Source of the DNA: an uncultured Muribaculaceae bacterium
Lineage (GTDB): Bacteria; Bacillota_I; Bacilli_A; RF39; UBA660
Reading direction: 5' to 3'
Assembly (NCBI GenBank): GCA_964407175.1
Contig: CAYOUK010000001.1
Coordinates: 1 to 39,731 of the forward strand
DNA length: 39,731 bases
Shown here: piece after piece, positions 1 to 39,731 of the stretch
Numbering within the stretch: position 1 is the first letter of the stretch
Layout: each line of letters begins with the position of its first letter
Notes under the pieces: generated by a model
Told to the model about the DNA's origin: nothing
Databases searched by the model: none
The model's input: only the letters and a program-made list of their open reading frames with translations
Position numbers and translations under genes: made by a program

Positions 1-357
1 AGAATCACTCATACTTTCTGGGCTATCGTTTTACCATGTATATTAATGATATTAGATATTATTACAGGTTATTACAACGCATGGGAAAAAAACGAAGTAT
101 CAAGCAAAAAGATGAGAGATGGTTTAGGCAAAAAACTTGCAGAGCTTATATATATAGTAATAGGTATGTTAATCTCATGTGCCTTTGGTGTTAAAGGTAT
201 AGGGTTCTTCATATCAGGTTATGTAGTATATATGGAGCTTGTAAGCATTGCTGAAAATTGCAAAAAGTTAGGTGTTGAATTACCTAAAGAAGTAGCAGAC
301 AAATTAAATAATGATATAGAAAAGGATGATGGAAATGATATCAATAGAGGTGAATAG
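1..357 (+). CDS. holin (TcdE / phage_holin_4-like), 5'-truncated by the window edge
   Basis: In-frame continuation of the ORF seen complete at 32328..32705. It has three hydrophobic helices and a charged C-terminal tail. One substitution at base 4 gives I instead of F. Confidence 0.75.
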   Translation, partial: RITHTFWAIVLPCILMILDIITGYYNAWEKNEVSSKKMRDGLGKKLAELIYIVIGMLISCAFGVKGIGFFISGYVVYMELVSIAENCKKLGVELPKEVADKLNNDIEKDDGNDINRGE

Positions 358-694
358 GGGTAGTGCTATTACATTGGTTATTAGTGCAACTGTAGGGGAT
401 GAAAATTATACTTTTCAACCTGGAGACGTAGTCAGACTTTCTATAACTGAAAGAAAAAACGAAAACAAAGTGGTTTTAAGAAAAGATGTAGAGGTGAATG
501 AGGAAACTGAAGAGGTAGAAATGCCTTTATTATCAAGCGACACTAAAATTGGAGACATTATAAACAAAGAAGTAGTTTATTGGTTTGAGGTAGAACTTAA
601 CCCAGATACAGAACAATGTCAAACTATTATTGGTTATGATGCAGATGGTGCTAAAGAGTTTATTTTATACCCTGAAAGTGGTGTATCGAATTGA
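335..694 (+). CDS. hypothetical protein (acidic, beta-rich; tail-fibre cluster)
   Basis: The ORF track gives 326..694. ATG 335 has better spacing to AAGGA at 321-325. The stop overlaps the next start (TTGA). No motif recognised. Confidence 0.6.
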   Translation: MISIEVNRGSAITLVISATVGDENYTFQPGDVVRLSITERKNENKVVLRKDVEVNEETEEVEMPLLSSDTKIGDIINKEVVYWFEVELNPDTEQCQTIIGYDADGAKEFILYPESGVSN

Positions 695-1293
695 CAGAAA
701 AAATTGAAATCATAGGTTTTATAAAAGACAAAAATAATATCAAGGGTGCATTGAGTAGTAACCTAAATTACAATAATCTCAAGATCACAAGTGCTTATTA
801 TTTATTTAGAAGTAATGCTAGAAGCGATTCTATGAATGATATTATAGCTTGTTTTAAAGATATAACTAACTGCGACCATGCATTTGAATATAATGACGTG
901 GTTGATGCACCTTTATTTGATACAAGTTCATGCACTACTTTTAATAGTATGTTTAATGGGGCAAGTCATTTAAAATCATTGCCAGAATATGATATGTCTA
1001 ACGCAAAAGATGTGTCAAATTTTTGTAATGCGTGTTATCAATTAGAAAGTGTTCCTGCTTATAATTGGGGAAGTATAACGGACATGAATTGGTACAATTC
1101 TTTTACTGGATGCTCAGCATTAAGTGATGAAAGTCTTAATAATATAATGAAGTCTTTTAGTACTATGTCAAATATAGCAAGCAGTCAAAAAAGATTAATG
1201 TATGCAGGTTTGAGCGAAACTCAAGCAAACAGATGCACAGAATTGCCAAATTGGAGCATTTTAGAAAGCGATGGATGGCGAACAGGTTATTAG
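691..1293 (+). CDS. DUF285 / BspA-like leucine-rich-repeat protein
   Basis: TTG start coupled to the upstream stop. It has repeated units of about 26 aa of the MF-x-gC-x-L type (FNSMFNGASHLKSLPEYDMSNAKDVSNFCNACYQLESVP...SFTGCSALS). Confidence 0.6.
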   Translation: MTEKIEIIGFIKDKNNIKGALSSNLNYNNLKITSAYYLFRSNARSDSMNDIIACFKDITNCDHAFEYNDVVDAPLFDTSSCTTFNSMFNGASHLKSLPEYDMSNAKDVSNFCNACYQLESVPAYNWGSITDMNWYNSFTGCSALSDESLNNIMKSFSTMSNIASSQKRLMYAGLSETQANRCTELPNWSILESDGWRTGY

Positions 1294-1304
1294 AGGTGGT
1301 TTAG

Positions 1305-1589
1305 ATGATTAAAAAGAGAACAAAAATAGTCGGTCATATTAGTGGCGCAGTCGGGCCGAAAGGCGAAAATGGTTTTAGTCCTATAATTACCACCTCTGAA
1401 ACTCAAGATGGTTATAAAATAACTATTACTGATATAGAAGATACTGAAGAAATAGAACTATTCAATGGAAAAGTTAATCATGAAGATTTGAATAATCTAG
1501 ACTTTGAAAGTTCAGGACATACAGGTTTTCAAGAAGAAATGACACCTCTAACAAATTGGGAAATAGAAAGGATGTTTGAAAATGAGTAG
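1305..1589 (+). CDS. hypothetical protein with a short collagen-like G-x-x stretch (GAVGPKGENG)
   Basis: Strong RBS (GAGGTGG). Lies in the fibre cluster. A short Gly-X-Y run is typical of fibre N-termini. Confidence 0.55.
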   Translation: MIKKRTKIVGHISGAVGPKGENGFSPIITTSETQDGYKITITDIEDTEEIELFNGKVNHEDLNNLDFESSGHTGFQEEMTPLTNWEIERMFENE

Positions 1590-2061
1590 TATTAAATATA
1601 CTGATGATAATGGTCTATTATATCTTATTCAAAAGATTAAGACATTATTAGGCAACAAAGTAGATAAAGAAACAGGAAAAGGGCTTTCAACTAATGATTA
1701 TACTAATGCAGATAAAACAATAGTTACAGGAATAGATGGCAGAGTTACAACTCTAGAAAATGCAGGTTATCAAACTGCAGGAGACGTTCAAACACTTATT
1801 AATTCTAGTCTAGCATCAGTTATGACATATAAAGGCACGGTTGCAAATTATAGTGATCTACCTAGTTCTAATGTGGCAGTAGGTGATACTTATAACATAA
1901 CAAATGCTAGTCAGTATAACAATGCAGGAGATAACGCAACGTGGAATGGTACATCTTGGGATGTTTTAGGAAGCAATATAGATTTATCTAGTTATTTACA
2001 AGATAGTGATTTGGTGGCAATTACAAACGCAGAAATAGATACAATGTGGAATGGAAATTAG
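1582..2061 (+). CDS. tail-fibre-like protein
   Basis: The track ORF starts at TTG 1576; ATG 1582 is preferred. It carries the GKGLSTNDYT motif and a C-terminal GDTYNI...WNGTSWDVLG motif, both common in Firmicute phage fibre proteins. Confidence 0.6.
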   Translation: MSSIKYTDDNGLLYLIQKIKTLLGNKVDKETGKGLSTNDYTNADKTIVTGIDGRVTTLENAGYQTAGDVQTLINSSLASVMTYKGTVANYSDLPSSNVAVGDTYNITNASQYNNAGDNATWNGTSWDVLGSNIDLSSYLQDSDLVAITNAEIDTMWNGN

Positions 2062-2070
2062 GTGGTTTAA

Positions 2071-3204
2071 ATGAAATATTTAAACGGCACAGGAACGGAA
2101 CATCTAATTGATAAGATTAAAGATGATTTAGAGCTAAAGTATGATAAGACAGGTGGAGAAATATCAGGCAACGTCAAGATAGATGGAACACTAACACTAG
2201 ACATAGAAGATGAAGATTATGATAGTGGAATCACTTTTGATAAATCTTTAGACACTAATGTTGGAACAATATTATCTTTGAATGGTTATGCTAATAGTTC
2301 AGAGACTACTAATTATAGACCAATAATAAGAAATGTTGGAACACCAAATCAAAATTATGATGTAGCAAACAAAAAGTATGTAGATGATAATGTTATAGTT
2401 CCTAATTATTATCTAACATTATTAAATGCAGATGGCACGATAGATACAACATCTTCAACATTAAACTATAATACTGTGATTTCTAACTTAACAAATAGAA
2501 GTAAAGCTGATTACTTGGACATTATATGGGGAACAACTAGATTTTATGCAAAATGTATTGAAGTAACGGATGTAAACACAGGAGATTTAAAGTTTATAGG
2601 TGAAGTAGAATATCAAGGAATACAAAGATATATGGTGTTTACTTTAACACCTAACAACGTATTGACTACTACTAATATCATAACTTTTGAGACAATAAGC
2701 GATAAGGTTCAGAGTGTAGTTGCAAATAGTACAAGCCAAGCAAAATACCCTAGCGCAAAAGCAGTCTTTGATGAATTTCAAAGAAAACCAGTAGTTGTAT
2801 GGGAAAGCAGTACGCCAAGCGAATATTTAAAAGGAATACAAGCAAATATGTCAGCAAGCCCAGCATGGCAACTAACAGATTTAGATTTGACACCATTTAA
2901 AAGGATTAAAATCTATACTTGTGCTGGTAAGGGTTCAACCAATGCCAGTACAACGCCAGCAATAATTTTGGAAATGTCTTTAGATAGTAGAGCAGTATCA
3001 ACTGCATGGGGGAATAACTATGTTGCGTCTACTGTTATACAAAAATCAAATGACAACAACAGACTTGCGACATTAACATGTGCTGTATCAGCAGACAAGA
3101 CAAGTTTTGTTGTATTATGGCAAACAAGCCTTTATGGTACTGCTGCAACTTCAAACAACGATGTAAACGCAAACGTATTTATGATAGAGGGTTATTATGA
3201 TTAG
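2071..3204 (+). CDS. tail fibre / receptor-binding protein
   Basis: 377 aa with a strong RBS. The N-terminal VANKKYVDD fibre-anchor motif is followed by an S/T/N-rich beta region. Confidence 0.6.
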   Translation: MKYLNGTGTEHLIDKIKDDLELKYDKTGGEISGNVKIDGTLTLDIEDEDYDSGITFDKSLDTNVGTILSLNGYANSSETTNYRPIIRNVGTPNQNYDVANKKYVDDNVIVPNYYLTLLNADGTIDTTSSTLNYNTVISNLTNRSKADYLDIIWGTTRFYAKCIEVTDVNTGDLKFIGEVEYQGIQRYMVFTLTPNNVLTTTNIITFETISDKVQSVVANSTSQAKYPSAKAVFDEFQRKPVVVWESSTPSEYLKGIQANMSASPAWQLTDLDLTPFKRIKIYTCAGKGSTNASTTPAIILEMSLDSRAVSTAWGNNYVASTVIQKSNDNNRLATLTCAVSADKTSFVVLWQTSLYGTAATSNNDVNANVFMIEGYYD

Positions 3205-3213
3205 GAGGTATTT

Positions 3214-3849
3214 ATGTTAAGTATTAGAGAAAGACAAACATATTTAAAATATTTAGGGCTTTATAAAGATGATAAAGGCAATGACGCTAAAATAGATGGC
3301 ATTGAGGGGCGTTTTACTAAAAGAGGTTATAAGTTAATACAAGATAAGTATTTTACAAGAAAATCAAATGGTAAATATATCGATAGAGATGGCAAATATG
3401 GCAGGAATACTGATATGCTTTTAGTTAATGCCTATAATGTTAAGAAATATACAAAGAATTTTAGTTTGAGTGAGTTCAAATGTGGATGTAACACAAAATA
3501 TTGCACGGGTTACCCTGCATATTTGAATATCAACCTTTTAAGGAATTTACAAACTATGAGAAATAACTATGGTGCTATCACTATTACAAGCCCATTAAGA
3601 TGTAGTAAACATAATGCTAATATCGGTGGTGTAGCAGGTTCATATCATACAAAAGGAAAAGCACTAGACTTATATAATGTTAGATTTAGTTCTAGTTTCA
3701 CAAACAGGAAATATGCTATCGAAAAATGGTTATTATTACCAAAAGCAAATATGGCATATCAAAATGGTTATATGCATTATAAGGGAAAGAGTGTAACTGG
3801 TTATAATGCTCCTAAAATGGGTAATGTTATACACGTACAGGTAGATTAA
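3214..3849 (+). CDS. endolysin: PG_binding_1-like N-terminus plus peptidase M15A (zinc D-Ala-D-Ala carboxypeptidase-like) domain
   Basis: RERQTYLKYLGLY...IDGIEG resembles a peptidoglycan-binding domain. FSLSEFKC...GSYHTKGKALDL...HVQVD fits the H-x6-D...H metal site of M15A. Confidence 0.8.
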   Translation: MLSIRERQTYLKYLGLYKDDKGNDAKIDGIEGRFTKRGYKLIQDKYFTRKSNGKYIDRDGKYGRNTDMLLVNAYNVKKYTKNFSLSEFKCGCNTKYCTGYPAYLNINLLRNLQTMRNNYGAITITSPLRCSKHNANIGGVAGSYHTKGKALDLYNVRFSSSFTNRKYAIEKWLLLPKANMAYQNGYMHYKGKSVTGYNAPKMGNVIHVQVD

Positions 3850-4253
3850 TGGATCAAACCACCAAAGAATTAATATTCATCTATAAACCAAAAGGTATAG
3901 ACTGGATGAATTTCAAAATAACAAAAGAAAACCCTATGACATATCACCAGATAGAAAAAAGAGAACACGGTGGCAAAAAGACAGTAGATAATGGGGCGAT
4001 TCTAACTAGGAATAGTCATCAGTATTTACATCTTATTGAAAGCAAAGAAGATAAGTTATATTTTGCTATTAATCAGTTATTAAAATTAATCAATAAACAA
4101 AAAACTGCTCCAACACAGGAGCAAAGAGAAATGATGGACTTTTTATTAGATGAATTCTTTAAAGCCCACGAGCACGATAAGAACGCAAAAGGTAAGCCTT
4201 TAATAAAAGATAAGTATATTTTAAGAGGCGAACCATTGACAATGAGATATTAA
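3849..4253 (+). CDS. HNH-like protein (Cys-less H-N-H pattern)
   Basis: YHQIEKREHGGKKTVDNGAILTRNSHQYLH fits H..GG..N..L..H...H spacing. The start overlaps the endolysin stop (TAATG). Confidence 0.4.
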   Translation: MDQTTKELIFIYKPKGIDWMNFKITKENPMTYHQIEKREHGGKKTVDNGAILTRNSHQYLHLIESKEDKLYFAINQLLKLINKQKTAPTQEQREMMDFLLDEFFKAHEHDKNAKGKPLIKDKYILRGEPLTMRY

Positions 4254-4270
4254 TTTGCTATACTTTATAT

Positions 4271-4306
4271 GGTGTGAAAATTCAATGTTTTTCTCATTTT
4301 TACACC
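4271..4306 (+). terminator. hairpin downstream of the HNH-like gene
   Basis: ggtgtgaaaat / atttttacacc forms an 11-bp stem with one G-U pair, followed by a T-rich tract. Confidence 0.4.
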
Positions 4307-4347
4307 TAGTATTTTTCTAATATTTTTTTAGAAAACAAAATAACTCG

Positions 4348-4374
4348 TAGATGCCTATAAGGCATCTATTTTTT
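4348..4374. terminator. bidirectional rho-independent terminator between convergent genes
   Basis: tagatgcc-tataa-ggcatcta is an 8-bp stem with TTTTTT downstream on the + strand and a T-rich tract on the - strand. It overlaps the stop of the minus-strand HNH gene. Confidence 0.6.
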
Positions 4375-4683
4375 GTATCTTTGATTTTCTATAGACCATC
4401 CAGGGTATTTGCTTTTCATATAACCCGTGATTATCTCGAGTATTTCATCATGCTCTTTTTTAGTTCCAAAATCAAAACGCCTATGACACTTTAAAGGACT
4501 TAATTCAGTGCATAGAGTTACAATGTTAGTTTCTATGCCTAGACCACCATGAGCCCTTGATAGAATATGAGCGTTAGGCATTGCTTGGTAACTACCACAT
4601 ACCACACACCTATGTTTATCTCTTTCCCATACTTTACTTTTAACACTTTCAGATATGTCAAGTGCATTAGTTCTATTTGACAT
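4366..4683 (-). CDS. HNH endonuclease (small, stand-alone)
   Basis: CVVCGS...NAHILSRAHGGLGIETNIVTLC...CHRRFD is a classic CxxC / H-N-H / C..H zinc-finger nuclease motif. It has a GGAGG RBS and a possible own promoter (TTCACA-17-TAGTAT, 4742..4714). Confidence 0.75.
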   Translation of the reverse strand: MSNRTNALDISESVKSKVWERDKHRCVVCGSYQAMPNAHILSRAHGGLGIETNIVTLCTELSPLKCHRRFDFGTKKEHDEILEIITGYMKSKYPGWSIENQRYKK

Positions 4684-4907
4684 TTTCTATACCTCCAATT
4701 TTATACAATGGTTATACTATGATATTTTGATAATTATGTGAATTATTTGAATAGAATACTAGGAATTTACTAGCATATAAACTTATGATAATAAAAATAA
4801 AATACCGTACGGGTCACCAAATTGTATTCTAGAAGCCTTTATTTTAGGGGCTTCTTTAATTTTATACAATGATTTATACAATGAGATGACAACTCAAAAG
4901 AAAATTT
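4684..4907. other. attP-like / prophage junction region
   Basis: Non-coding tract next to int. It holds three exact TTATACAATG copies (4701, 4862, 4874), the palindrome CCGTACGG (4805..4812) and a hairpin agaagcc/ggcttct (4831..4855). Confidence 0.5.
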
Positions 4908-6032
4908 TTAATAAAAATCATCAGTAATGTTTGACACTTTTTTTCTAGAGTTAGTTGACACATTGCCATACACATCAATAGTAGTAGATATTTTAGAGTG
5001 CCCCATTGATTTCTCTAACACATACATATCAATGCCCTGTTCCATCATTAGAGTAGCAAAGGTGTGTCTTAAATCATACATTCTTATTTTTGGTACTCCT
5101 GCAAGTTCAATATAATGGTTGAAATGTTTTCTTAATGATACATCACTTATTTGTTTACCAGTTGATACACTTAACAATAAAGGTGTATCTTTTTTTATTT
5201 GGACGCCTATATTATTAGTTAAGAATTTTTTATATTCAAAAATCTCATTTAGGTATTTATCAGTTACAAATATATCTCTTTGTGCCATGGTGTTTTTTGA
5301 ATTGCCTTTTAATCGGTTCAAAGATGTGTCATATTCAATAGAATTTCTAATAGTGATGATTTTCTTGTTAAAGTCTATGTCGTTGAATGTGAGGGCTCGT
5401 AGTTCCCCTAGACGACATCCGAGTGATAACATTGATATAGTTAGTATCTTTATAAGTCTTGCTGATGGATCATTCAAGTTATTATTGAGCGTTTTAATGA
5501 ATCTATTTATATCATCTTGTAACCAATAATTAAGAATAGGTTTAGTGGTTTTTTCTTTAGTTATATAAAGAGCAGGTGATATGTCTAGATATTCATTTTT
5601 ACAACACCACGTGAAAAAGGCTTTTAACATCTTTAAAAGTTCGTTTTTTTCTTTAGTGGTTCTATTAATCGAGTTAAAAAATAAGATTAAGTCATTTTTA
5701 GATATTTGATTAATCTTATATTTTGAAAGTCTATGATATTCTATATTATAAAACATTTTCTTTTTCTTTAGAGTGTTATATGCCATTTTGTAAACGTGTT
5801 CGCACTCGTAAAGGTATTTATTATATAATTCTTCAAAAGATATATTAGATTTGTTTAATTGCTTGTTTGTGTAGCTATCTCTAACTTTTAAAGCAATATC
5901 AATAGAATATATCTTGTCGCCATTAAAACGTGATATGGTGCTATTAATCTTTGATATAGTGATTATATAATTCTTGTTTTTCTCGTGTTTATAGATATTC
6001 TGATAACGTGTTTTTTTGTAGTATTTTTCCAT
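4908..6032 (-). CDS. int: tyrosine recombinase / phage integrase
   Basis: 374 aa. The catalytic context is LGCRLGELRAL, YDLRHTFATLMM, MGHSKISTTIDVY. It sits at the prophage end beside the repressor. Confidence 0.9.
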   Translation of the reverse strand: MEKYYKKTRYQNIYKHEKNKNYIITISKINSTISRFNGDKIYSIDIALKVRDSYTNKQLNKSNISFEELYNKYLYECEHVYKMAYNTLKKKKMFYNIEYHRLSKYKINQISKNDLILFFNSINRTTKEKNELLKMLKAFFTWCCKNEYLDISPALYITKEKTTKPILNYWLQDDINRFIKTLNNNLNDPSARLIKILTISMLSLGCRLGELRALTFNDIDFNKKIITIRNSIEYDTSLNRLKGNSKNTMAQRDIFVTDKYLNEIFEYKKFLTNNIGVQIKKDTPLLLSVSTGKQISDVSLRKHFNHYIELAGVPKIRMYDLRHTFATLMMEQGIDMYVLEKSMGHSKISTTIDVYGNVSTNSRKKVSNITDDFY

Positions 6033-6059
6033 GGTGTTTTTCTCTTTTCTATTTTTTGA

Positions 6060-6299
6060 TTATTTTTGATATTTTTCCATTTGAGATATATCTTTTGTAA
6101 TAATATCATCCATAGAAATGTTTAAAAAGTTGCATATCAAATAAACATCTTTTACTATTGGTTGTCTTTCGCCTGTTTTCCATCTTTGAACTAGTGTTCT
6201 GTCTTTTTTTATCAAAGCACATAATGTTTTAATAGAGATCCTTTTTGTATTGATTAACCACTCTATATTTTTGGCAAATATTTTTTCATCATAATTCAT
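6060..6299 (-). CDS. XRE-family HTH repressor (CI-like, no peptidase domain)
   Basis: 79 aa with HTH ISIKTLCALIKKDRTLVQRWKTGERQP. It is transcribed divergently from the cro-like gene. Confidence 0.7.
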   Translation of the reverse strand: MNYDEKIFAKNIEWLINTKRISIKTLCALIKKDRTLVQRWKTGERQPIVKDVYLICNFLNISMDDIITKDISQMEKYQK

Positions 6300-6327
6300 T
6301 TATAAAACTCCTTTTTTTAACCCATAA

Positions 6328-6433
6328 GTTGTATTGTGATTTAATTATACAACACATTTTTTTGTAAAGCAAACACCAAAAATGTAAAAATAATATAAAA
6401 ATTGTTGACTTTAAGTCACAGACGTGATAATAT
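6328..6433. promoter_or_regulatory. divergent switch promoters with operator-like repeats
   Basis: Minus strand: TTGCTT (6372..6367), 17-nt spacer, TATAAT (6349..6344). Plus strand: TTGACT (6405..6410), 17-nt spacer, TG-n-TAATAT (6428..6433). The inverted repeat GTTGTAT/ATACAAC (6328..6353) overlaps the leftward -10. AAGTCACAGA (6413..6422) lies in the rightward spacer. Confidence 0.6.
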
Positions 6434-6457
6434 TAAATTACAAGAAGGGAGGAAGCT

Positions 6458-6664
6458 ATGGACAATCTAACAGTTTCAAGAAACATCAAAGCACAAAGAA
6501 TCATCAGAGGCTTATATCAATTAGATGTAGCAAAAATGTTAGGAATTAGCAAACAAACGTATATAAGAATAGAAACAAAGCCTTTTGAAATGCCAGTATG
6601 GAAATTAAAAAGGGTCGCAGATGTGTTAGGATGTAAATTAGATGACTTTTTTGTAGTACATTAA
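6458..6664 (+). CDS. Cro-like XRE-family HTH protein
   Basis: 68 aa with HTH LYQLDVAKMLGISKQTYIRIE and a strong RBS. It is the first rightward gene. Confidence 0.7.
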   Translation: MDNLTVSRNIKAQRIIRGLYQLDVAKMLGISKQTYIRIETKPFEMPVWKLKRVADVLGCKLDDFFVVH

Positions 6665-6729
6665 GTTCCTTATAGTCACATATTTTTTTGGAACGCGATG
6701 TGCCTAAAAGTCACAGAAAAGAGGTTTAA

Positions 6730-6903
6730 ATGTATAGCAAAGAAGATATATCAAACATACTAAATTGTAGTATTAGCAAAGCATACAACATCTTAAAAAA
6801 ATTACAAGAGATGTTAAAACAGGAACAACCTGAAATATTAATAATCAGAGGTAGAATACCGAAGAGTTATTTTGAAAAAAAAGTATTAGGAAAAGAGGTG
6901 TAA
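6730..6903 (+). CDS. small HTH protein, excisionase / DUF3173-like
   Basis: 57 aa and not in the ORF track. RBS is AGAGG. ISNILNCSISKAYNILKKL...RGRIPKSYFEKKVLG resembles Xis-like proteins of Firmicute mobile elements. Confidence 0.45.
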   Translation: MYSKEDISNILNCSISKAYNILKKLQEMLKQEQPEILIIRGRIPKSYFEKKVLGKEV

Positions 6904-6905
6904 TA

Positions 6906-7064
6906 ATGAGAAAAGTATTGAATATTGGTTTACTAATTTATGCAGTATTAGCATTTGGAGCAATGTTTACAAGAGATGCAGGAATATTCAGTAATGTAAT
7001 GACTTGGATGGTTCAAGTAGGACTTGCTTTCAGTTTAAAAGAATTAGTACTTATGGAGGGTTAA
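6906..7064 (+). CDS. small membrane protein (52 aa)
   Basis: Not in the ORF track. RBS is AGAGGTG. It has two hydrophobic segments. The repeat identity block ends inside this gene at 6933. Confidence 0.5.
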   Translation: MRKVLNIGLLIYAVLAFGAMFTRDAGIFSNVMTWMVQVGLAFSLKELVLMEG

Positions 7065-7067
7065 TAT

Positions 7068-7544: not shown

Positions 7545-7827
7545 ATCTATTGTTAAGGAATTATTAGAGTATTACCCTGCAACTAGAGAAGATGACTTTT
7601 ATCTAGTTGGTAGTGTGTATTACATGATAAAGCCTGAAATAAAGACAAAGACATTTTTAGACATAATGAAAAAACATAAAGAGTATGGTTTACCTAGTTT
7701 TGAAAGTATAACAAGAGCTAGGAGAAAAGTACAAGCAGAAAATGATGATTTGGTTAGTAACAAAGCAAAAAGAATTAGAGAAAAAGAAGAAAGAGAATAT
7801 TTTGAATATTATAAAGGAGTGATTTAA
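7531..7827 (+). CDS. hypothetical early protein
   Basis: GTG start after AAGGAG. 98 aa, no motif recognised. Confidence 0.6.
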   Translation: MKKVESIVKELLEYYPATREDDFYLVGSVYYMIKPEIKTKTFLDIMKKHKEYGLPSFESITRARRKVQAENDDLVSNKAKRIREKEEREYFEYYKGVI

Positions 7828-7829
7828 GA

Positions 7830-9518: not shown

Positions 9519-9528
9519 GAGGTAAGTT

Positions 9529-9984: not shown

Positions 9985-9987
9985 AAA

Positions 9988-31583: not shown

Positions 31584-31592
31584 GAGGGTTAT

Positions 31593-31874: not shown

Positions 31875-31884
31875 GAGGGAAAAT

Positions 31885-32304: not shown

Positions 32305-32327
32305 ATTAAAAATAGAAAGAGGGAATT

Positions 32328-32705
32328 ATGGAAGTTTTAGAAGAACTAAGATTCACTCATACTTTCTGGGCTATCGTTTTACCATGTATATTAATGATAT
32401 TAGATATTATTACAGGTTATTACAACGCATGGGAAAAAAACGAAGTATCAAGCAAAAAGATGAGAGATGGTTTAGGCAAAAAACTTGCAGAGCTTATATA
32501 TATAGTAATAGGTATGTTAATCTCATGTGCCTTTGGTGTTAAAGGTATAGGGTTCTTCATATCAGGTTATGTAGTATATATGGAGCTTGTAAGCATTGCT
32601 GAAAATTGCAAAAAGTTAGGTGTTGAATTACCTAAAGAAGTAGCAGACAAATTAAATAATGATATAGAAAAGGATGATGGAAATGATATCAATAGAGGTG
32701 AATAG
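32328..32705 (+). CDS. holin (TcdE / phage_holin_4-like), complete copy
   Basis: 125 aa with three transmembrane helices and a charged C-terminus. RBS AGAGGG. Confidence 0.75.
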   Translation: MEVLEELRFTHTFWAIVLPCILMILDIITGYYNAWEKNEVSSKKMRDGLGKKLAELIYIVIGMLISCAFGVKGIGFFISGYVVYMELVSIAENCKKLGVELPKEVADKLNNDIEKDDGNDINRGE

Positions 32706-33042
32706 GGGTAGTGCTATTACATTGGTTATTAGTGCAACTGTAGGGGATGAAAATTATACTTTTCAACCTGGAGACGTAGTCAGACTTTCTATAACTGAAA
32801 GAAAAAACGAAAACAAAGTGGTTTTAAGAAAAGATGTAGAGGTGAATGAGGAAACTGAAGAGGTAGAAATGCCTTTATTATCAAGCGACACTAAAATTGG
32901 AGACATTATAAACAAAGAAGTAGTTTATTGGTTTGAGGTAGAACTTAACCCAGATACAGAACAATGTCAAACTATTATTGGTTATGATGCAGATGGTGCT
33001 AAAGAGTTTATTTTATACCCTGAAAGTGGTGTATCGAATTGA
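32683..33042 (+). CDS. hypothetical protein (copy of 335..694)
   Basis: Identical translation, offset 32,348. Confidence 0.6.
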   Translation: MISIEVNRGSAITLVISATVGDENYTFQPGDVVRLSITERKNENKVVLRKDVEVNEETEEVEMPLLSSDTKIGDIINKEVVYWFEVELNPDTEQCQTIIGYDADGAKEFILYPESGVSN

Positions 33043-33641
33043 CAGAAAAAATTGAAATCATAGGTTTTATAAAAGACAAAAATAATATCAAGGGTGCATT
33101 GAGTAGTAACCTAAATTACAATAATCTCAAGATCACAAGTGCTTATTATTTATTTAGAAGTAATGCTAGAAGCGATTCTATGAATGATATTATAGCTTGT
33201 TTTAAAGATATAACTAACTGCGACCATGCATTTGAATATAATGACGTGGTTGATGCACCTTTATTTGATACAAGTTCATGCACTACTTTTAATAGTATGT
33301 TTAATGGGGCAAGTCATTTAAAATCATTGCCAGAATATGATATGTCTAACGCAAAAGATGTGTCAAATTTTTGTAATGCGTGTTATCAATTAGAAAGTGT
33401 TCCTGCTTATAATTGGGGAAGTATAACGGACATGAATTGGTACAATTCTTTTACTGGATGCTCAGCATTAAGTGATGAAAGTCTTAATAATATAATGAAG
33501 TCTTTTAGTACTATGTCAAATATAGCAAGCAGTCAAAAAAGATTAATGTATGCAGGTTTGAGCGAAACTCAAGCAAACAGATGCACAGAATTGCCAAATT
33601 GGAGCATTTTAGAAAGCGATGGATGGCGAACAGGTTATTAG
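33039..33641 (+). CDS. DUF285 / BspA-like LRR protein (copy of 691..1293)
   Basis: Identical translation, offset 32,348. Confidence 0.6.
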   Translation: MTEKIEIIGFIKDKNNIKGALSSNLNYNNLKITSAYYLFRSNARSDSMNDIIACFKDITNCDHAFEYNDVVDAPLFDTSSCTTFNSMFNGASHLKSLPEYDMSNAKDVSNFCNACYQLESVPAYNWGSITDMNWYNSFTGCSALSDESLNNIMKSFSTMSNIASSQKRLMYAGLSETQANRCTELPNWSILESDGWRTGY

Positions 33642-33652
33642 AGGTGGTTTAG

Positions 33653-33937
33653 ATGATTAAAAAGAGAACAAAAATAGTCGGTCATATTAGTGGCGCAGTC
33701 GGGCCGAAAGGCGAAAATGGTTTTAGTCCTATAATTACCACCTCTGAAACTCAAGATGGTTATAAAATAACTATTACTGATATAGAAGATACTGAAGAAA
33801 TAGAACTATTCAATGGAAAAGTTAATCATGAAGATTTGAATAATCTAGACTTTGAAAGTTCAGGACATACAGGTTTTCAAGAAGAAATGACACCTCTAAC
33901 AAATTGGGAAATAGAAAGGATGTTTGAAAATGAGTAG
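33653..33937 (+). CDS. hypothetical protein with collagen-like stretch (copy of 1305..1589)
   Basis: Identical translation, offset 32,348. Confidence 0.55.
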   Translation: MIKKRTKIVGHISGAVGPKGENGFSPIITTSETQDGYKITITDIEDTEEIELFNGKVNHEDLNNLDFESSGHTGFQEEMTPLTNWEIERMFENE

Positions 33938-34409
33938 TATTAAATATACTGATGATAATGGTCTATTATATCTTATTCAAAAGATTAAGACATTATTAGG
34001 CAACAAAGTAGATAAAGAAACAGGAAAAGGGCTTTCAACTAATGATTATACTAATGCAGATAAAACAATAGTTACAGGAATAGATGGCAGAGTTACAACT
34101 CTAGAAAATGCAGGTTATCAAACTGCAGGAGACGTTCAAACACTTATTAATTCTAGTCTAGCATCAGTTATGACATATAAAGGCACGGTTGCAAATTATA
34201 GTGATCTACCTAGTTCTAATGTGGCAGTAGGTGATACTTATAACATAACAAATGCTAGTCAGTATAACAATGCAGGAGATAACGCAACGTGGAATGGTAC
34301 ATCTTGGGATGTTTTAGGAAGCAATATAGATTTATCTAGTTATTTACAAGATAGTGATTTGGTGGCAATTACAAACGCAGAAATAGATACAATGTGGAAT
34401 GGAAATTAG
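33930..34409 (+). CDS. tail-fibre-like protein (copy of 1582..2061)
   Basis: Identical translation, offset 32,348. Confidence 0.6.
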   Translation: MSSIKYTDDNGLLYLIQKIKTLLGNKVDKETGKGLSTNDYTNADKTIVTGIDGRVTTLENAGYQTAGDVQTLINSSLASVMTYKGTVANYSDLPSSNVAVGDTYNITNASQYNNAGDNATWNGTSWDVLGSNIDLSSYLQDSDLVAITNAEIDTMWNGN

Positions 34410-34418
34410 GTGGTTTAA

Positions 34419-35552
34419 ATGAAATATTTAAACGGCACAGGAACGGAACATCTAATTGATAAGATTAAAGATGATTTAGAGCTAAAGTATGATAAGACAG
34501 GTGGAGAAATATCAGGCAACGTCAAGATAGATGGAACACTAACACTAGACATAGAAGATGAAGATTATGATAGTGGAATCACTTTTGATAAATCTTTAGA
34601 CACTAATGTTGGAACAATATTATCTTTGAATGGTTATGCTAATAGTTCAGAGACTACTAATTATAGACCAATAATAAGAAATGTTGGAACACCAAATCAA
34701 AATTATGATGTAGCAAACAAAAAGTATGTAGATGATAATGTTATAGTTCCTAATTATTATCTAACATTATTAAATGCAGATGGCACGATAGATACAACAT
34801 CTTCAACATTAAACTATAATACTGTGATTTCTAACTTAACAAATAGAAGTAAAGCTGATTACTTGGACATTATATGGGGAACAACTAGATTTTATGCAAA
34901 ATGTATTGAAGTAACGGATGTAAACACAGGAGATTTAAAGTTTATAGGTGAAGTAGAATATCAAGGAATACAAAGATATATGGTGTTTACTTTAACACCT
35001 AACAACGTATTGACTACTACTAATATCATAACTTTTGAGACAATAAGCGATAAGGTTCAGAGTGTAGTTGCAAATAGTACAAGCCAAGCAAAATACCCTA
35101 GCGCAAAAGCAGTCTTTGATGAATTTCAAAGAAAACCAGTAGTTGTATGGGAAAGCAGTACGCCAAGCGAATATTTAAAAGGAATACAAGCAAATATGTC
35201 AGCAAGCCCAGCATGGCAACTAACAGATTTAGATTTGACACCATTTAAAAGGATTAAAATCTATACTTGTGCTGGTAAGGGTTCAACCAATGCCAGTACA
35301 ACGCCAGCAATAATTTTGGAAATGTCTTTAGATAGTAGAGCAGTATCAACTGCATGGGGGAATAACTATGTTGCGTCTACTGTTATACAAAAATCAAATG
35401 ACAACAACAGACTTGCGACATTAACATGTGCTGTATCAGCAGACAAGACAAGTTTTGTTGTATTATGGCAAACAAGCCTTTATGGTACTGCTGCAACTTC
35501 AAACAACGATGTAAACGCAAACGTATTTATGATAGAGGGTTATTATGATTAG
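34419..35552 (+). CDS. tail fibre / receptor-binding protein (copy of 2071..3204)
   Basis: Identical translation, offset 32,348. Confidence 0.6.
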   Translation: MKYLNGTGTEHLIDKIKDDLELKYDKTGGEISGNVKIDGTLTLDIEDEDYDSGITFDKSLDTNVGTILSLNGYANSSETTNYRPIIRNVGTPNQNYDVANKKYVDDNVIVPNYYLTLLNADGTIDTTSSTLNYNTVISNLTNRSKADYLDIIWGTTRFYAKCIEVTDVNTGDLKFIGEVEYQGIQRYMVFTLTPNNVLTTTNIITFETISDKVQSVVANSTSQAKYPSAKAVFDEFQRKPVVVWESSTPSEYLKGIQANMSASPAWQLTDLDLTPFKRIKIYTCAGKGSTNASTTPAIILEMSLDSRAVSTAWGNNYVASTVIQKSNDNNRLATLTCAVSADKTSFVVLWQTSLYGTAATSNNDVNANVFMIEGYYD

Positions 35553-35561
35553 GAGGTATTT

Positions 35562-36197
35562 ATGTTAAGTATTAGAGAAAGACAAACATATTTAAAATAT
35601 TTAGGGCTTTATAAAGATGATAAAGGCAATGACGCTAAAATAGATGGCATTGAGGGGCGTTTTACTAAAAGAGGTTATAAGTTAATACAAGATAAGTATT
35701 TTACAAGAAAATCAAATGGTAAATATATCGATAGAGATGGCAAATATGGCAGGAATACTGATATGCTTTTAGTTAATGCCTATAATGTTAAGAAATATAC
35801 AAAGAATTTTAGTTTGAGTGAGTTCAAATGTGGATGTAACACAAAATATTGCACGGGTTACCCTGCATATTTGAATATCAACCTTTTAAGGAATTTACAA
35901 ACTATGAGAAATAACTATGGTGCTATCACTATTACAAGCCCATTAAGATGTAGTAAACATAATGCTAATATCGGTGGTGTAGCAGGTTCATATCATACAA
36001 AAGGAAAAGCACTAGACTTATATAATGTTAGATTTAGTTCTAGTTTCACAAACAGGAAATATGCTATCGAAAAATGGTTATTATTACCAAAAGCAAATAT
36101 GGCATATCAAAATGGTTATATGCATTATAAGGGAAAGAGTGTAACTGGTTATAATGCTCCTAAAATGGGTAATGTTATACACGTACAGGTAGATTAA
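35562..36197 (+). CDS. endolysin, PG-binding plus peptidase M15A (copy of 3214..3849)
   Basis: Identical translation, offset 32,348. Confidence 0.8.
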   Translation: MLSIRERQTYLKYLGLYKDDKGNDAKIDGIEGRFTKRGYKLIQDKYFTRKSNGKYIDRDGKYGRNTDMLLVNAYNVKKYTKNFSLSEFKCGCNTKYCTGYPAYLNINLLRNLQTMRNNYGAITITSPLRCSKHNANIGGVAGSYHTKGKALDLYNVRFSSSFTNRKYAIEKWLLLPKANMAYQNGYMHYKGKSVTGYNAPKMGNVIHVQVD

Positions 36198-36601
36198 TGG
36201 ATCAAACCACCAAAGAATTAATATTCATCTATAAACCAAAAGGTATAGACTGGATGAATTTCAAAATAACAAAAGAAAACCCTATGACATATCACCAGAT
36301 AGAAAAAAGAGAACACGGTGGCAAAAAGACAGTAGATAATGGGGCGATTCTAACTAGGAATAGTCATCAGTATTTACATCTTATTGAAAGCAAAGAAGAT
36401 AAGTTATATTTTGCTATTAATCAGTTATTAAAATTAATCAATAAACAAAAAACTGCTCCAACACAGGAGCAAAGAGAAATGATGGACTTTTTATTAGATG
36501 AATTCTTTAAAGCCCACGAGCACGATAAGAACGCAAAAGGTAAGCCTTTAATAAAAGATAAGTATATTTTAAGAGGCGAACCATTGACAATGAGATATTA
36601 A
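36197..36601 (+). CDS. HNH-like protein (copy of 3849..4253)
   Basis: Identical translation, offset 32,348. Confidence 0.4.
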   Translation: MDQTTKELIFIYKPKGIDWMNFKITKENPMTYHQIEKREHGGKKTVDNGAILTRNSHQYLHLIESKEDKLYFAINQLLKLINKQKTAPTQEQREMMDFLLDEFFKAHEHDKNAKGKPLIKDKYILRGEPLTMRY

Positions 36602-36695
36602 TTTGCTATACTTTATATGGTGTGAAAATTCAATGTTTTTCTCATTTTTACACCTAGTATTTTTCTAATATTTTTTTAGAAAACAAAATAACTCG

Positions 36696-36722
36696 TAGAT
36701 GCCTATAAGGCATCTATTTTTT
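36696..36722. terminator. bidirectional terminator (copy of 4348..4374)
   Basis: Same hairpin tagatgcc/ggcatcta with T runs. Confidence 0.6.
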
Positions 36723-37031
36723 GTATCTTTGATTTTCTATAGACCATCCAGGGTATTTGCTTTTCATATAACCCGTGATTATCTCGAGTATTTCATCATG
36801 CTCTTTTTTAGTTCCAAAATCAAAACGCCTATGACACTTTAAAGGACTTAATTCAGTGCATAGAGTTACAATGTTAGTTTCTATGCCTAGACCACCATGA
36901 GCCCTTGATAGAATATGAGCGTTAGGCATTGCTTGGTAACTACCACATACCACACACCTATGTTTATCTCTTTCCCATACTTTACTTTTAACACTTTCAG
37001 ATATGTCAAGTGCATTAGTTCTATTTGACAT
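36714..37031 (-). CDS. HNH endonuclease (copy of 4366..4683)
   Basis: Identical translation, offset 32,348. Confidence 0.75.
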   Translation of the reverse strand: MSNRTNALDISESVKSKVWERDKHRCVVCGSYQAMPNAHILSRAHGGLGIETNIVTLCTELSPLKCHRRFDFGTKKEHDEILEIITGYMKSKYPGWSIENQRYKK

Positions 37032-37255
37032 TTTCTATACCTCCAATTTTATACAATGGTTATACTATGATATTTTGATAATTATGTGAATTATTTGAAT
37101 AGAATACTAGGAATTTACTAGCATATAAACTTATGATAATAAAAATAAAATACCGTACGGGTCACCAAATTGTATTCTAGAAGCCTTTATTTTAGGGGCT
37201 TCTTTAATTTTATACAATGATTTATACAATGAGATGACAACTCAAAAGAAAATTT
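37032..37255. other. attP-like junction region (copy of 4684..4907)
   Basis: Same TTATACAATG triplet and CCGTACGG palindrome. Confidence 0.5.
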
Positions 37256-38380
37256 TTAATAAAAATCATCAGTAATGTTTGACACTTTTTTTCTAGAGTT
37301 AGTTGACACATTGCCATACACATCAATAGTAGTAGATATTTTAGAGTGCCCCATTGATTTCTCTAACACATACATATCAATGCCCTGTTCCATCATTAGA
37401 GTAGCAAAGGTGTGTCTTAAATCATACATTCTTATTTTTGGTACTCCTGCAAGTTCAATATAATGGTTGAAATGTTTTCTTAATGATACATCACTTATTT
37501 GTTTACCAGTTGATACACTTAACAATAAAGGTGTATCTTTTTTTATTTGGACGCCTATATTATTAGTTAAGAATTTTTTATATTCAAAAATCTCATTTAG
37601 GTATTTATCAGTTACAAATATATCTCTTTGTGCCATGGTGTTTTTTGAATTGCCTTTTAATCGGTTCAAAGATGTGTCATATTCAATAGAATTTCTAATA
37701 GTGATGATTTTCTTGTTAAAGTCTATGTCGTTGAATGTGAGGGCTCGTAGTTCCCCTAGACGACATCCGAGTGATAACATTGATATAGTTAGTATCTTTA
37801 TAAGTCTTGCTGATGGATCATTCAAGTTATTATTGAGCGTTTTAATGAATCTATTTATATCATCTTGTAACCAATAATTAAGAATAGGTTTAGTGGTTTT
37901 TTCTTTAGTTATATAAAGAGCAGGTGATATGTCTAGATATTCATTTTTACAACACCACGTGAAAAAGGCTTTTAACATCTTTAAAAGTTCGTTTTTTTCT
38001 TTAGTGGTTCTATTAATCGAGTTAAAAAATAAGATTAAGTCATTTTTAGATATTTGATTAATCTTATATTTTGAAAGTCTATGATATTCTATATTATAAA
38101 ACATTTTCTTTTTCTTTAGAGTGTTATATGCCATTTTGTAAACGTGTTCGCACTCGTAAAGGTATTTATTATATAATTCTTCAAAAGATATATTAGATTT
38201 GTTTAATTGCTTGTTTGTGTAGCTATCTCTAACTTTTAAAGCAATATCAATAGAATATATCTTGTCGCCATTAAAACGTGATATGGTGCTATTAATCTTT
38301 GATATAGTGATTATATAATTCTTGTTTTTCTCGTGTTTATAGATATTCTGATAACGTGTTTTTTTGTAGTATTTTTCCAT
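37256..38380 (-). CDS. int: tyrosine integrase (copy of 4908..6032)
   Basis: Identical translation, offset 32,348. Confidence 0.9.
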   Translation of the reverse strand: MEKYYKKTRYQNIYKHEKNKNYIITISKINSTISRFNGDKIYSIDIALKVRDSYTNKQLNKSNISFEELYNKYLYECEHVYKMAYNTLKKKKMFYNIEYHRLSKYKINQISKNDLILFFNSINRTTKEKNELLKMLKAFFTWCCKNEYLDISPALYITKEKTTKPILNYWLQDDINRFIKTLNNNLNDPSARLIKILTISMLSLGCRLGELRALTFNDIDFNKKIITIRNSIEYDTSLNRLKGNSKNTMAQRDIFVTDKYLNEIFEYKKFLTNNIGVQIKKDTPLLLSVSTGKQISDVSLRKHFNHYIELAGVPKIRMYDLRHTFATLMMEQGIDMYVLEKSMGHSKISTTIDVYGNVSTNSRKKVSNITDDFY

Positions 38381-38407
38381 GGTGTTTTTCTCTTTTCTAT
38401 TTTTTGA

Positions 38408-38647
38408 TTATTTTTGATATTTTTCCATTTGAGATATATCTTTTGTAATAATATCATCCATAGAAATGTTTAAAAAGTTGCATATCAAATAAACATCTTT
38501 TACTATTGGTTGTCTTTCGCCTGTTTTCCATCTTTGAACTAGTGTTCTGTCTTTTTTTATCAAAGCACATAATGTTTTAATAGAGATCCTTTTTGTATTG
38601 ATTAACCACTCTATATTTTTGGCAAATATTTTTTCATCATAATTCAT
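38408..38647 (-). CDS. XRE-family repressor (copy of 6060..6299)
   Basis: Identical translation, offset 32,348. Confidence 0.7.
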   Translation of the reverse strand: MNYDEKIFAKNIEWLINTKRISIKTLCALIKKDRTLVQRWKTGERQPIVKDVYLICNFLNISMDDIITKDISQMEKYQK

Positions 38648-38675
38648 TTATAAAACTCCTTTTTTTAACCCATAA

Positions 38676-38781
38676 GTTGTATTGTGATTTAATTATACAA
38701 CACATTTTTTTGTAAAGCAAACACCAAAAATGTAAAAATAATATAAAAATTGTTGACTTTAAGTCACAGACGTGATAATAT
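38676..38781. promoter_or_regulatory. divergent switch promoters and operators (copy of 6328..6433)
   Basis: Same sequence. AAGTCACAGA lies at 38761..38770. Confidence 0.6.
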
Positions 38782-38805
38782 TAAATTACAAGAAGGGAGG
38801 AAGCT

Positions 38806-39012
38806 ATGGACAATCTAACAGTTTCAAGAAACATCAAAGCACAAAGAATCATCAGAGGCTTATATCAATTAGATGTAGCAAAAATGTTAGGAATTAGCAA
38901 ACAAACGTATATAAGAATAGAAACAAAGCCTTTTGAAATGCCAGTATGGAAATTAAAAAGGGTCGCAGATGTGTTAGGATGTAAATTAGATGACTTTTTT
39001 GTAGTACATTAA
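38806..39012 (+). CDS. Cro-like HTH protein (copy of 6458..6664)
   Basis: Identical translation, offset 32,348. Confidence 0.7.
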   Translation: MDNLTVSRNIKAQRIIRGLYQLDVAKMLGISKQTYIRIETKPFEMPVWKLKRVADVLGCKLDDFFVVH

Positions 39013-39077
39013 GTTCCTTATAGTCACATATTTTTTTGGAACGCGATGTGCCTAAAAGTCACAGAAAAGAGGTTTAA

Positions 39078-39251
39078 ATGTATAGCAAAGAAGATATATC
39101 AAACATACTAAATTGTAGTATTAGCAAAGCATACAACATCTTAAAAAAATTACAAGAGATGTTAAAACAGGAACAACCTGAAATATTAATAATCAGAGGT
39201 AGAATACCGAAGAGTTATTTTGAAAAAAAAGTATTAGGAAAAGAGGTGTAA
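39078..39251 (+). CDS. Xis-like small HTH protein (copy of 6730..6903)
   Basis: Identical sequence, offset 32,348. Confidence 0.45.
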   Translation: MYSKEDISNILNCSISKAYNILKKLQEMLKQEQPEILIIRGRIPKSYFEKKVLGKEV

Positions 39252-39253
39252 TA

Positions 39254-39412
39254 ATGAGAAAAGTATTGAATATTGGTTTATTAATTTATGCAGTATTAGC
39301 ATTTGGAGCAATGTTTACAAGAGATGCTGGAATATTCAGTAATGTAATGACTTGGTTAGTTCAAGTTGGACTTGCATTCAGCTTAAAAGAATTAGTACTT
39401 ATGGAGGGTTAA
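39254..39412 (+). CDS. small membrane protein, slightly diverged allele of 6906..7064
   Basis: Same length. I count six base substitutions, mostly synonymous (one M to L change). The first mismatch is at 39281. Confidence 0.5.
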   Translation: MRKVLNIGLLIYAVLAFGAMFTRDAGIFSNVMTWLVQVGLAFSLKELVLMEG

Positions 39413-39413
39413 T

Positions 39414-39731
39414 ATGGAGAATGGTTATGCACTTTGTCTTAATGAATGGGCTTTAGATAAAAGTATCAAAAATGAATTGGGGCTATTATTAATCATATCA
39501 AGTTTATGTGCTGAAAAAGGCTATTGTTATGCAAGTAATAAATATTTAGCAGAGATATTTGATACTAACGAAGTTGTAATATGCCGAAAGATAAAAAAGT
39601 TAGAAGAAAAAAAATATATAAGCATTGAATATAAAAGACAAGGATCATATATAACTATGCGACATATACGATTAACAAAAAAGTTAATGGCCGTTAACAA
39701 AAAAGTTAATGGTACCATTAACAAAAAATTT
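39414..39731 (+). CDS. replication initiator HTH protein, allele B (3'-truncated by window end)
   Basis: MENGYALCLNEWALDKSIKNELGLL...EKGYCYASNKYLAEIF... is roughly two-thirds identical to allele A over the N-terminus. The frame is open to the last base. It was not reported in the ORF track. Confidence 0.6.
   Translation, partial: MENGYALCLNEWALDKSIKNELGLLLIISSLCAEKGYCYASNKYLAEIFDTNEVVICRKIKKLEEKKYISIEYKRQGSYITMRHIRLTKKLMAVNKKVNGTINKKF
39672..39728 (+). repeat. allele-B iterons inside the second initiator gene
   Basis: TTAACAAAAAAGTTAATGG occurs at 39672 and 39694 (22-bp period), with a partial TTAACAAAAAA at 39718. The sequence is unrelated to the allele-A iteron. Confidence 0.55.

Follow-up and report, generated by a model that had tools for sequence, protein, structure and literature searches.

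A phage contig that repeats part of its 32,348-bp genome unit and ends in a different replication initiator allele

Gene content and repeat geometry of the window

The stretch of DNA analysed here (the window) is a complete NCBI contig of 39,731 nt, free of Ns and of scaffold marks, and carries the genes of an uncultured, temperate, siphovirus-like phage of about 31% G+C from the ruminant gut. The unit genome of this phage is 32,348 bp, and the window therefore comprises about 1.23 units. That the contig is complete is indicated by two protein clusters, P0193 and P0253 (the latter 100% identical), whose longest member contig, with NCBI among the sources, measures 39,731 nt. Both ends of the window fall within phage genes. 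It starts 21 nt into a holin gene, and the block that follows on the plus strand, 1..6932, holds the truncated holin, lysis genes, an att-like region, the integrase gene, a repressor-like and a cro-like gene, and two small genes of 57 and 52 aa, the first of which could be xis-like. The endolysin (3214..3849, plus strand; second copy at 35562-36197) is identified by a match to the Peptidase_M15_3 domain, and an HNH-endonuclease-like gene on the minus strand (4366..4683; 36714-37031) by a match to phrog_7370 with E = 5e-18. Between the latter and a tyrosine integrase, also on the minus strand (4908..6032; 37256-38380), lies an att-like intergenic region (4684..4907; 37032-37255) with three occurrences of TTTATACAATG(A/G) and a conserved hairpin, which is a putative attP. 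Profile matches further define two HTH regulators, a repressor-like protein of 79 aa on the minus strand (6060..6299; 38408-38647) and a Cro-like protein of 68 aa on the plus strand (6458..6664; 38806-39012). An earlier, sequence-only reading of the window had named a holin, an endolysin, an integrase, a repressor, a cro and a xis gene, and largely agrees with this content, in which the endolysin is an M15 peptidase and the two HTH regulators are divergent; it had also listed two HNH genes, only one of which (4366-4683) is supported.

The single-copy remainder of the unit (7545..32327, plus strand), annotated from gene calls and profile matches, encodes a 240-aa Slr1353_N/ExoX-like_C protein, an SSB, a NinB-like protein, a DNA methyltransferase, two glycosyltransferases, TerL, the portal, a minor head protein, the tape measure, and tail and baseplate proteins. 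TerL matches just the broad family phrog_2, with about 25% and at most 27% identity to cultured phages, one of the matches being annotated as 'PBSX family'. Searches of Pfam gave no match for TerL, portal or capsid, and tRNA and Rfam scans returned nothing in the window, which offers no tRNA-type att.

Self-comparison at an offset of 32,348 shows that 1..6932 is the same as 32349..39280 (the two copies of a shared block, S, both on the plus strand) apart from base 4, which is A in the first copy and T, at 32352, in the second; this is the sole difference over 6,932 nt, and over 6,928 positions the two copies of S differ at none. The 6.9-kb repeat described in the sequence-only reading is thus real and ends where that reading placed it, at 6932/39280; its start belongs at base 1 and not at base 5, since bases 1-3 match too. 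Its length and exactness rule out a chance or simple-sequence repeat. Beyond the block the copies remain homologous and diverge, as had also been noticed: mismatches follow at 6933, 6980, 7008, 7010, 7019, 7028 and 7034, a 2-bp indel at about 7065-7066 changes the offset to 32,346, and past the indel the copies are about 75% identical through 39731.

The wrap point, 32348/32349, lies within an intact holin gene of 125 aa (32328..32705, plus strand), equal in length to the holins of three relatives (L009, L010, L020). The gene order across this point is the ordinary contiguous order found in L002, L006, L009/L010, L011 and L020, and no special junction sequence separates the copies, so that the junction is seamless. 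The contig termini look technical, because a private mismatch lies 3-4 nt from each of them: on the plus strand, base 4 is A in the window and T in the second copy and in L009, L010 and L020, and base 39729, 3 nt from the window end, is T here and G in six relatives with the allele found at that end. The chance that the sole difference in 6,932 nt would land in the first 4 nt is about 6e-4, and the base-4 mismatch is probably an end artefact. A repeat that begins at base 1 with a period of one genome unit has the geometry of an assembly over-run.

Initiator alleles and relatives of the phage

Alignment of the two copies and of the relatives places a transition zone at 6933..7067 (plus strand), in the 3' half of the 52-aa gene, where the seven mismatches with 39281-39413 are located. 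The last part of the zone, about 64 bp long, is conserved in all lineages, and it is there that the initiator alleles switch. In the first copy it is followed by a replication initiator of 158 aa (allele A; 7068..7544, plus strand), which matches HTH_36 (PF13730) and PHROG families of O-like or DnaD-like proteins and is 97.7% identical to its counterpart in L009. Within this gene, three iterons of 23 bp (7322-7401) and then 15-bp AT-rich repeats (7391-7420) form a putative ori at 7322..7420 (plus strand). The second copy continues into allele B (39414..39731, plus strand), 106 codons of an initiator truncated by the contig end and 99% identical to proteins P0135 and P0136; its own iterons, three of 22-24 bp with the sequence TTAACAAAAAAGTTAATGG, occupy 39667..39731 (plus strand), the contig stopping within the third. 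Between A and B, the iteron sequence changes along with the N-terminal DNA-binding part of the initiator. Initiator and iterons together would constitute a lambda-O-like cassette with its putative ori.

The B-type initiator occurs in six loci from other samples (L017, L018, L019, L020, L021 and L022). The tail of the window is about 99% identical to L017 over the initiator gene, L017 being elsewhere a different phage, and in two other loci the B tail stands on an A-type left module, with 98% (L019) and 96% (L020) identity over the junction. The B arrangement is therefore found independently of the window and, judging from these loci, a natural 'phage B' consisting of the left module and the tail allele exists in other samples. 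The cassette is hypervariable: on 13 contigs, one identical 240-aa protein is encoded downstream of no fewer than four initiator alleles, so that, with allele A, the lineage has at least five initiator forms. Co-occurrence of variants in one sample is seen for a relative, with L003 and L029 both coming from sample ERZ28593775. The immunity region, compared for SNPs specific to the B lineage to the left of 39281, is about 98-99% conserved, too much so to tell the lineages apart.

The contigs of relatives are about one unit long (32,878, 32,429 and 32,007 nt), and among 27 other clusters with at least 95% identity to the 240-aa protein the largest contig measures 33,188 nt. Independent lineages diverge by 5-7% over S. 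Every fetched locus that covers the stretch from lysin through att to int continues through it without host DNA, and none of the relatives' contig ends maps to the att-like region. In other assemblies, long contigs end at much the same place as that where the two copies begin to diverge, at 6853 in L010 (32,007 nt) and at 7013 in L023 (29,847 nt, with a SPAdes-style name); the clustering of ends at about 6,700-7,000 is partly a matter of ascertainment, since genes of this part of the unit served to retrieve the loci. Megablast found no match in the phage collection, with 1-7600 and 7001-32000 as queries, or in the plasmid collection, with 1-7600, and exact-pattern scans of IMG/VR and of JGI metagenomes found none. 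A search for the integrase locus yielded nothing in IMG/VR and, in GTDB genomes, just a Clostridium MAG with 26% identity (L001), which was left out of the comparisons. Among the collections searched, the lineage is represented in ENA, Logan and NCBI data only.

Origin of the repetition

The explanation that we consider probable, with less than full confidence, is that a circular or permuted genome was over-assembled in a mixed population polymorphic for the initiator/ori cassette. The template DNA would have been circular, circularly permuted or concatemeric, and the sample would have contained at least two genotypes of the phage lineage, A and B, with a common lysis, integration and immunity block and with different cassettes, each made up of the DNA-binding part of the initiator and the cognate iterons (ori). 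Such cassettes would be exchanged by homologous recombination at the conserved stretch of about 64 bp that ends the upstream 52-aa gene. The assembler would have circled the 32,348-bp unit once and then gone on for 7.4 kb; on this second pass it would have left the dominant genotype A just ahead of the initiator gene and continued along genotype B, which gave out after 450 nt. We infer that the second pass and the switch from A to B were made by the assembler and do not reflect one physical molecule. Identity of the two S copies in a phage whose lineages differ by 5-7% is what a single S sequence, used twice, would give, although zero differences over S would also fit a real and very recent A/B recombinant on the same molecule. 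A strict de Bruijn unitig cannot hold the 6.9-kb block twice, and the over-assembly reading therefore needs a path-extending or long-read assembler.

Concatenation of copies of one viral genome is an occasional product of assemblers, which CheckV flags by k-mer frequency and duplicated-region filters (PMC8116208). The window resembles the contigs so described in having a period equal to the genome size, a repeat that runs from the first base, a seamless intragenic junction and relatives of a single unit; unlike them, it comprises just 1.23 copies, and its ends differ, the second pass finishing in another genotype. A concatemer or chimeric assembly from a mixture of two related phages had been the fallback of the sequence-only reading and is now the best-supported account, the B allele being natural on the same kind of left module. 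The argument against a wrap-around, namely that its copies should stay identical through to the last base, does not hold once a sample contains more than one genotype. If the contig is an over-run, its true unit measures 32,348 bp (for example, 1..32348), and its final 450 nt derive from a different genotype. It would be rated a linear genome of about 123% completeness, it would be missed by checks for direct terminal repeats because its ends are non-identical, and it might be mistaken for a tandem prophage.

That the contig represents instead one molecule, with successive units carrying different initiator/ori cassettes (a heteroallelic concatemer, a redundancy heterozygote, or tandem prophages with shared immunity), is a possibility to which we attach distinctly lower weight. 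If true, a molecule with both alleles would show module exchange between co-infecting phages while it is under way, something rarely seen directly, and in an uncultured gut phage.

The first variant of such a molecule is a replicative concatemer, or virion DNA that was packaged by the headful with terminal redundancy, to about 123% of the unit, captured by long reads, in which recombination between co-infecting A and B phages placed two alleles at the overlapping ends. The seamless junction with a period of exactly one unit is compatible with this, as are the natural occurrence of both alleles on the same kind of left module and the conserved 64-bp boundary, which is a possible crossover site. 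The terminase of the PBSX family is usually associated with headful packaging, and the PBSX record among the TerL matches points the same way, a weak link at about 25% identity; 39.7 kb is a size commonly held by phage heads. Terminal-redundancy heterozygotes of the T4 type are known among circularly permuted headful phages, and such a heterozygote would explain two alleles per molecule; the window shares with these phages the direct repetition of its left end at the right end. However, known headful phages typically have a terminal redundancy between a few percent and about 10-15%, and the 23% seen here is far beyond that. The ends are not identical direct repeats, as headful packaging would have them, since they diverge from 6933/39281 and are about 75% identical after the indel. 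Moreover, a contig is a consensus rather than one molecule, the private mismatch near each end suggests technical termini, and nothing about this contig indicates a long-read or virion origin or marks it as one packaged molecule. We regard this variant as unlikely. A long direct terminal repeat of a linear genome, of the T5 or SPO1 type, is rejected, as the block includes the integrase gene together with those for lysis and immunity, and its ends differ from each other.

Still less probable, in our estimation, is the tandem polylysogeny that the sequence-only reading had put first. It would require three or more related prophages head to tail at one attB, of which unit 0 is partial, unit 1 is of the A type and unit 2 of the B type. 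Such an array could form by integrase-mediated recombination of attP with attL or attR, or if a resident prophage received a homologous (Campbell-type) insertion. Tandem prophages include lambda dilysogens and CTXphi arrays. Tandem heterologous prophages have been documented, for example prophiT36-2a/b of M. abscessus (PMC9934374). With tandem prophages the window shares the head-to-tail order, an attP-like junction of the kind predicted inside an array, and units that are related but non-identical, here in the replication cassette. It differs from them in that the chromosomal context is missing, the immunity genes are identical and the relatives occur only as single units, in attP form. We looked for bacterial genes, tRNA, attL and attR and found none within the 39.7-kb window, although an array could extend past the contig. 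Both copies of the att-like region have the same sequence and resemble attP, as they would no less in a circular or concatemeric genome; the intact att between the units, taken earlier as a sign of polylysogeny, is uninformative because any such genome has one, and in every relative covering it the att-int stretch runs without host flanks. The relatives, from many samples, have the attP form alone, on single-unit contigs. The pattern demands at least 2.2 units and therefore three prophages in which S is 100% identical, against the 5-7% that separates independent lineages. The repressor and cro genes are identical between the units, and a superinfecting phage of the same immunity integrates poorly. 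The technical-looking contig ends also speak against an array, and no test gave support to its integrase-mediated formation.

A post-assembly construct is as improbable as the prophage array. Here the beginning of a circular contig would have been attached to its own end, or scaffolding or curation would have joined an A circle to a B fragment through their overlap. In favour of this, the S copies are exactly identical and the 450-nt tail resembles short B-type contigs of other samples (L019, 1,103 nt; L022, 912 nt), but plain duplication gives neither the base-4 mismatch nor the B tail, and the absence of Ns and scaffold marks also speaks against it.

Comparison with lambdoid replication modules

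In lambda, P22 and phi80, replication modules are mosaic, and an O-style initiator that carries the ori iterons in its own gene is exchanged at conserved boundaries. The phage described here differs from these in belonging to an uncultured lineage of about 31% G+C from the ruminant gut, with a TerL at most 27% identical to those of cultured phages, and in having no P-like or DnaB-loader partner that could be found in the window; its ori is putative. The exchange of an initiator and iteron (putative ori) cassette at a conserved boundary, in a temperate phage lineage of the ruminant gut, would be ordinary biology in a clean form. The resemblance to lambdoid modules extends to several features. 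The HTH initiator has its PHROG matches in families labelled O-like, DnaD-like or replication initiation protein, and three iterons with AT-rich repeats lie inside its gene. The iterons co-vary with the N-terminal DNA-binding part, the switch occurring at the conserved stretch of about 64 bp, and many initiator alleles are joined to one identical downstream gene.

Repeat geometry and the putative initiator/ori cassette

When the window was compared with itself at a shift of 32,348, positions 1..6932 (block S) were found to recur at 32349..39280 with the sole exception of base 4, which is A and has T as its counterpart at base 32352; at 6,928 positions there are no differences between the two copies. 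The sequence-only reading had described the repeat accurately, except that it placed the start at base 5 instead of base 1. Beyond S, the copies mismatch at 6933, 6980, 7008, 7010, 7019, 7028 and 7034, are offset by a 2-bp indel at about 7065, and thereafter retain about 75% identity through the last base, 39731. The alignment places the allele switch where a 52-aa gene finishes: some 64 bp at its 3' end are conserved in every lineage, and the switch falls within them. The window accordingly contains the end of one unit, the att-like region, a full unit with replication initiator allele A (7068..7544), the att-like region again, and the start of a unit with allele B.

The tail of the contig (39414-39731) is this second initiator allele, truncated. 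Independent relatives were fetched from ENA and Logan assemblies via the integrase, the initiator and the 240-aa protein encoded downstream of the initiator, and several of their sample names suggest ruminant-gut studies. The tail protein is 99% identical to protein clusters P0135 and P0136, and the tail DNA is about 99% identical across the initiator gene to locus L017; in other respects L017 is another phage, whose lysin is of the CHAP type, whose integrase has 380 aa and whose DNA is about 73% identical elsewhere. The A-type cro/57-aa/52-aa module is joined to a B-type initiator in other samples as well, namely in L019 (98% identical over 39106-39731) and in L020, a 16.9-kb Logan contig that is A-type from the lysis to the immunity genes and 96% identical over 38407-39731. 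The presence of the same combination in other samples indicates that "phage B" is a natural genotype.

Each allele carries its own three iterons inside the initiator gene, followed by two 15-bp AT-rich repeats. In allele A, the iterons are 3 x 23 bp (7322-7401; …TGTTACCCGTCCAGT…), with the AT-rich repeats extending to 7420; in allele B, they are 3 x 22-24 bp (39667-39731; TTAACAAAAAAGTTAATGG), and the contig stops in the third. Iterons and AT-rich repeats are likewise found in L017 (10259-10354). The iteron sequence varies between A and B together with the N-terminal HTH part of the protein. The O gene of phage lambda is an initiator gene with an internal ori, and the window initiator resembles it in having iterons and AT-rich repeats inside the gene, which suggests, by analogy, a putative initiator/ori replication-specificity cassette. 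The cassette is hypervariable: one identical 240-aa protein (P0257) occurs on 13 contigs with at least four initiator forms, and two variants (L003 and L029) are present within one sample, ERZ28593775. One form includes an inserted DUF559/MTES_1575 (Vsr-like) endonuclease gene of 200 aa (L027 1525-2127, L029 780-1382, L030 737-1339), with the initiator on one side of it and the 98-aa gene on the other; this places it right at the mosaic hot spot, where, as a possible homing-type element, it may promote gene conversion. Long contigs from other assemblies also break at the cassette, L010 (32,007 nt) at 6853 in window coordinates and L023, which is 29,847 nt long and named in SPAdes style, at 7013; short contigs ending there are in part a matter of ascertainment, the loci having been fetched with genes from that neighbourhood.

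The unit boundary and the att-like region

The wrap point, 32348/32349, lies inside an intact holin gene (32328-32705, 125 aa), so that the contig merely begins 21 nt into this gene. Gene order is uninterrupted across the corresponding point in relatives, for example L002, L006, L009/L010, L011 and L020, and the contigs of relatives approximate a single unit in length (32,878, 32,429 and 32,007 nt). At an identity of 95% or more, the 240-aa protein has 27 other clusters, and none of their contigs exceeds 33,188 nt. No host DNA was found in any fetched locus covering the lysin, the att-like region and the integrase, and none of the relatives' contig ends mapped within the att-like region. An intact att-like region is therefore to be expected between units of any circular or concatemeric genome of this phage; its presence, previously taken as a sign of polylysogeny, does not favor that interpretation.

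The putative att-like intergenic region (4684-4907 and 37032-37255) is highly conserved in L009, L011 and L020. It contains three copies of TTTATACAATG(A/G), at 4700, 4861 and 4873, that, judging from sequence, could be arm-type Int sites, and a conserved hairpin, GAAGCC-N-GGCTTC, at about 4834-4858. Locus L021 (Logan ERR12765016), which is 91% identical, has neither an integrase nor the 79-aa repressor-like gene (compare window 4729-6341), and its lysis module and HNH-like gene run straight into another HTH gene and a B-type initiator; it could be a virulent derivative devoid of int and repressor.

Origin of the contig

The window is one whole contig: two clusters that include window proteins, P0193 (initiator allele A) and P0253, list NCBI as a source and 39,731 nt as their longest contig. 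Both extremities of the contig look technical, that is, ragged assembly ends rather than biological boundaries. In S, only the fourth base of the contig differs, being A there but T in the second copy, L009, L010 and L020; at 3 nt from the other end, the T of the window stands against G in six of six B-type relatives. The chance of a single random mismatch in 6,932 nt landing in the first 4 nt is about 6e-4. Two SNPs in the transition zone, 39281 and 39367, set the second copy apart from all others (T versus C or A in every relative of both allele types) and could be low-coverage tail errors or genuine private variants.

Independent lineages diverge by 5-7% in S (window versus L009, window versus L020). 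L009 (Logan SRR12711505_237) matches L010 (ENA ERZ27298013:k141_858029) at 100% over 6.8 kb; the two probably derive from a single run assembled twice and were not counted as independent. The identity of the two S copies at 6,928 positions is what is expected if one sequence was traversed twice. The window is, therefore, probably the product of an over-run, the genome being circular or permuted and the population a mixture of A and B, and the fallback of the sequence-only reading, a chimeric or wrap-around assembly from such a population, becomes the best explanation, with phage B being natural. Assemblers occasionally concatenate copies of one viral genome (CheckV, PMC8116208). An over-run would need a path-extending or long-read assembler, and one is assumed here since a block of 6.9 kb could not appear twice in the output of a strict unitig assembler. 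The underlying biology would be ordinary modular exchange of the initiator/ori cassette.

Among the alternatives, a heteroallelic concatemer that physically exists, or a terminal-redundancy heterozygote, is rather unlikely. The tandem prophage array that the sequence-only reading favored has a genuine precedent (PMC9934374) but is unsupported and improbable here: the layout of the window requires at least three units with S, repressor and cro identical in all of them, an S without differences in three separately acquired prophages would take special pleading to explain, and the contig contains no host DNA. A post-assembly merge is improbable as well.

Gene content of the phage unit

The 32,348-bp unit, with a G+C content of about 31%, is a temperate, siphovirus-like phage genome. 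The lysis genes include, besides the holin, an M15 endolysin, and there is one HNH-like gene. A tyrosine integrase adjoins the att-like region, the repressor-like and cro-like HTH genes form a divergent pair, and the 57-aa and 52-aa genes lie between the cro-like gene and the initiator, an HTH_36 protein that matches O-like and DnaD-like families. Further genes encode a 98-aa protein, the 240-aa Slr1353_N/ExoX-like_C protein (7830-8552; 100% identical to P0253), SSB and a NinB-like protein, and a 484-aa DNA methyltransferase is encoded in the early region (11916-13370; phrog_67, E = 1e-64). The packaging and structural genes comprise TerL, portal, minor head protein, tape measure, tail and baseplate genes. 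Scans of the window revealed no tRNAs, Rfam matches or bacterial genes. Phage and plasmid collections yielded no DNA match to the window, and no cultured phage has a TerL more than 27% identical to that of the window; the phage is without a close cultured relative, and the lineage itself is new and uncultured.

Two glycosyltransferase genes, one GT1-like (15789-16898) and one Gly_transf_sug/TcdA-TcdB-like (16960-17589), lie between the replication and packaging modules and have conserved counterparts in L005 and L009. As candidate morons, accessory genes from which the host may benefit, they would modify its surface glycans. Between the holin and endolysin genes, a 200-aa protein (691-1293) is encoded whose repeat domain is of the DUF285 ("Mycoplasma") type. 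This protein, the low G+C content and the occurrence in a "Bacilli bacterium" MAG of a homologue (P0363) 67% identical to the 240-aa protein give a hint of the host, which may be a low-GC Bacilli or Mollicutes-like bacterium.
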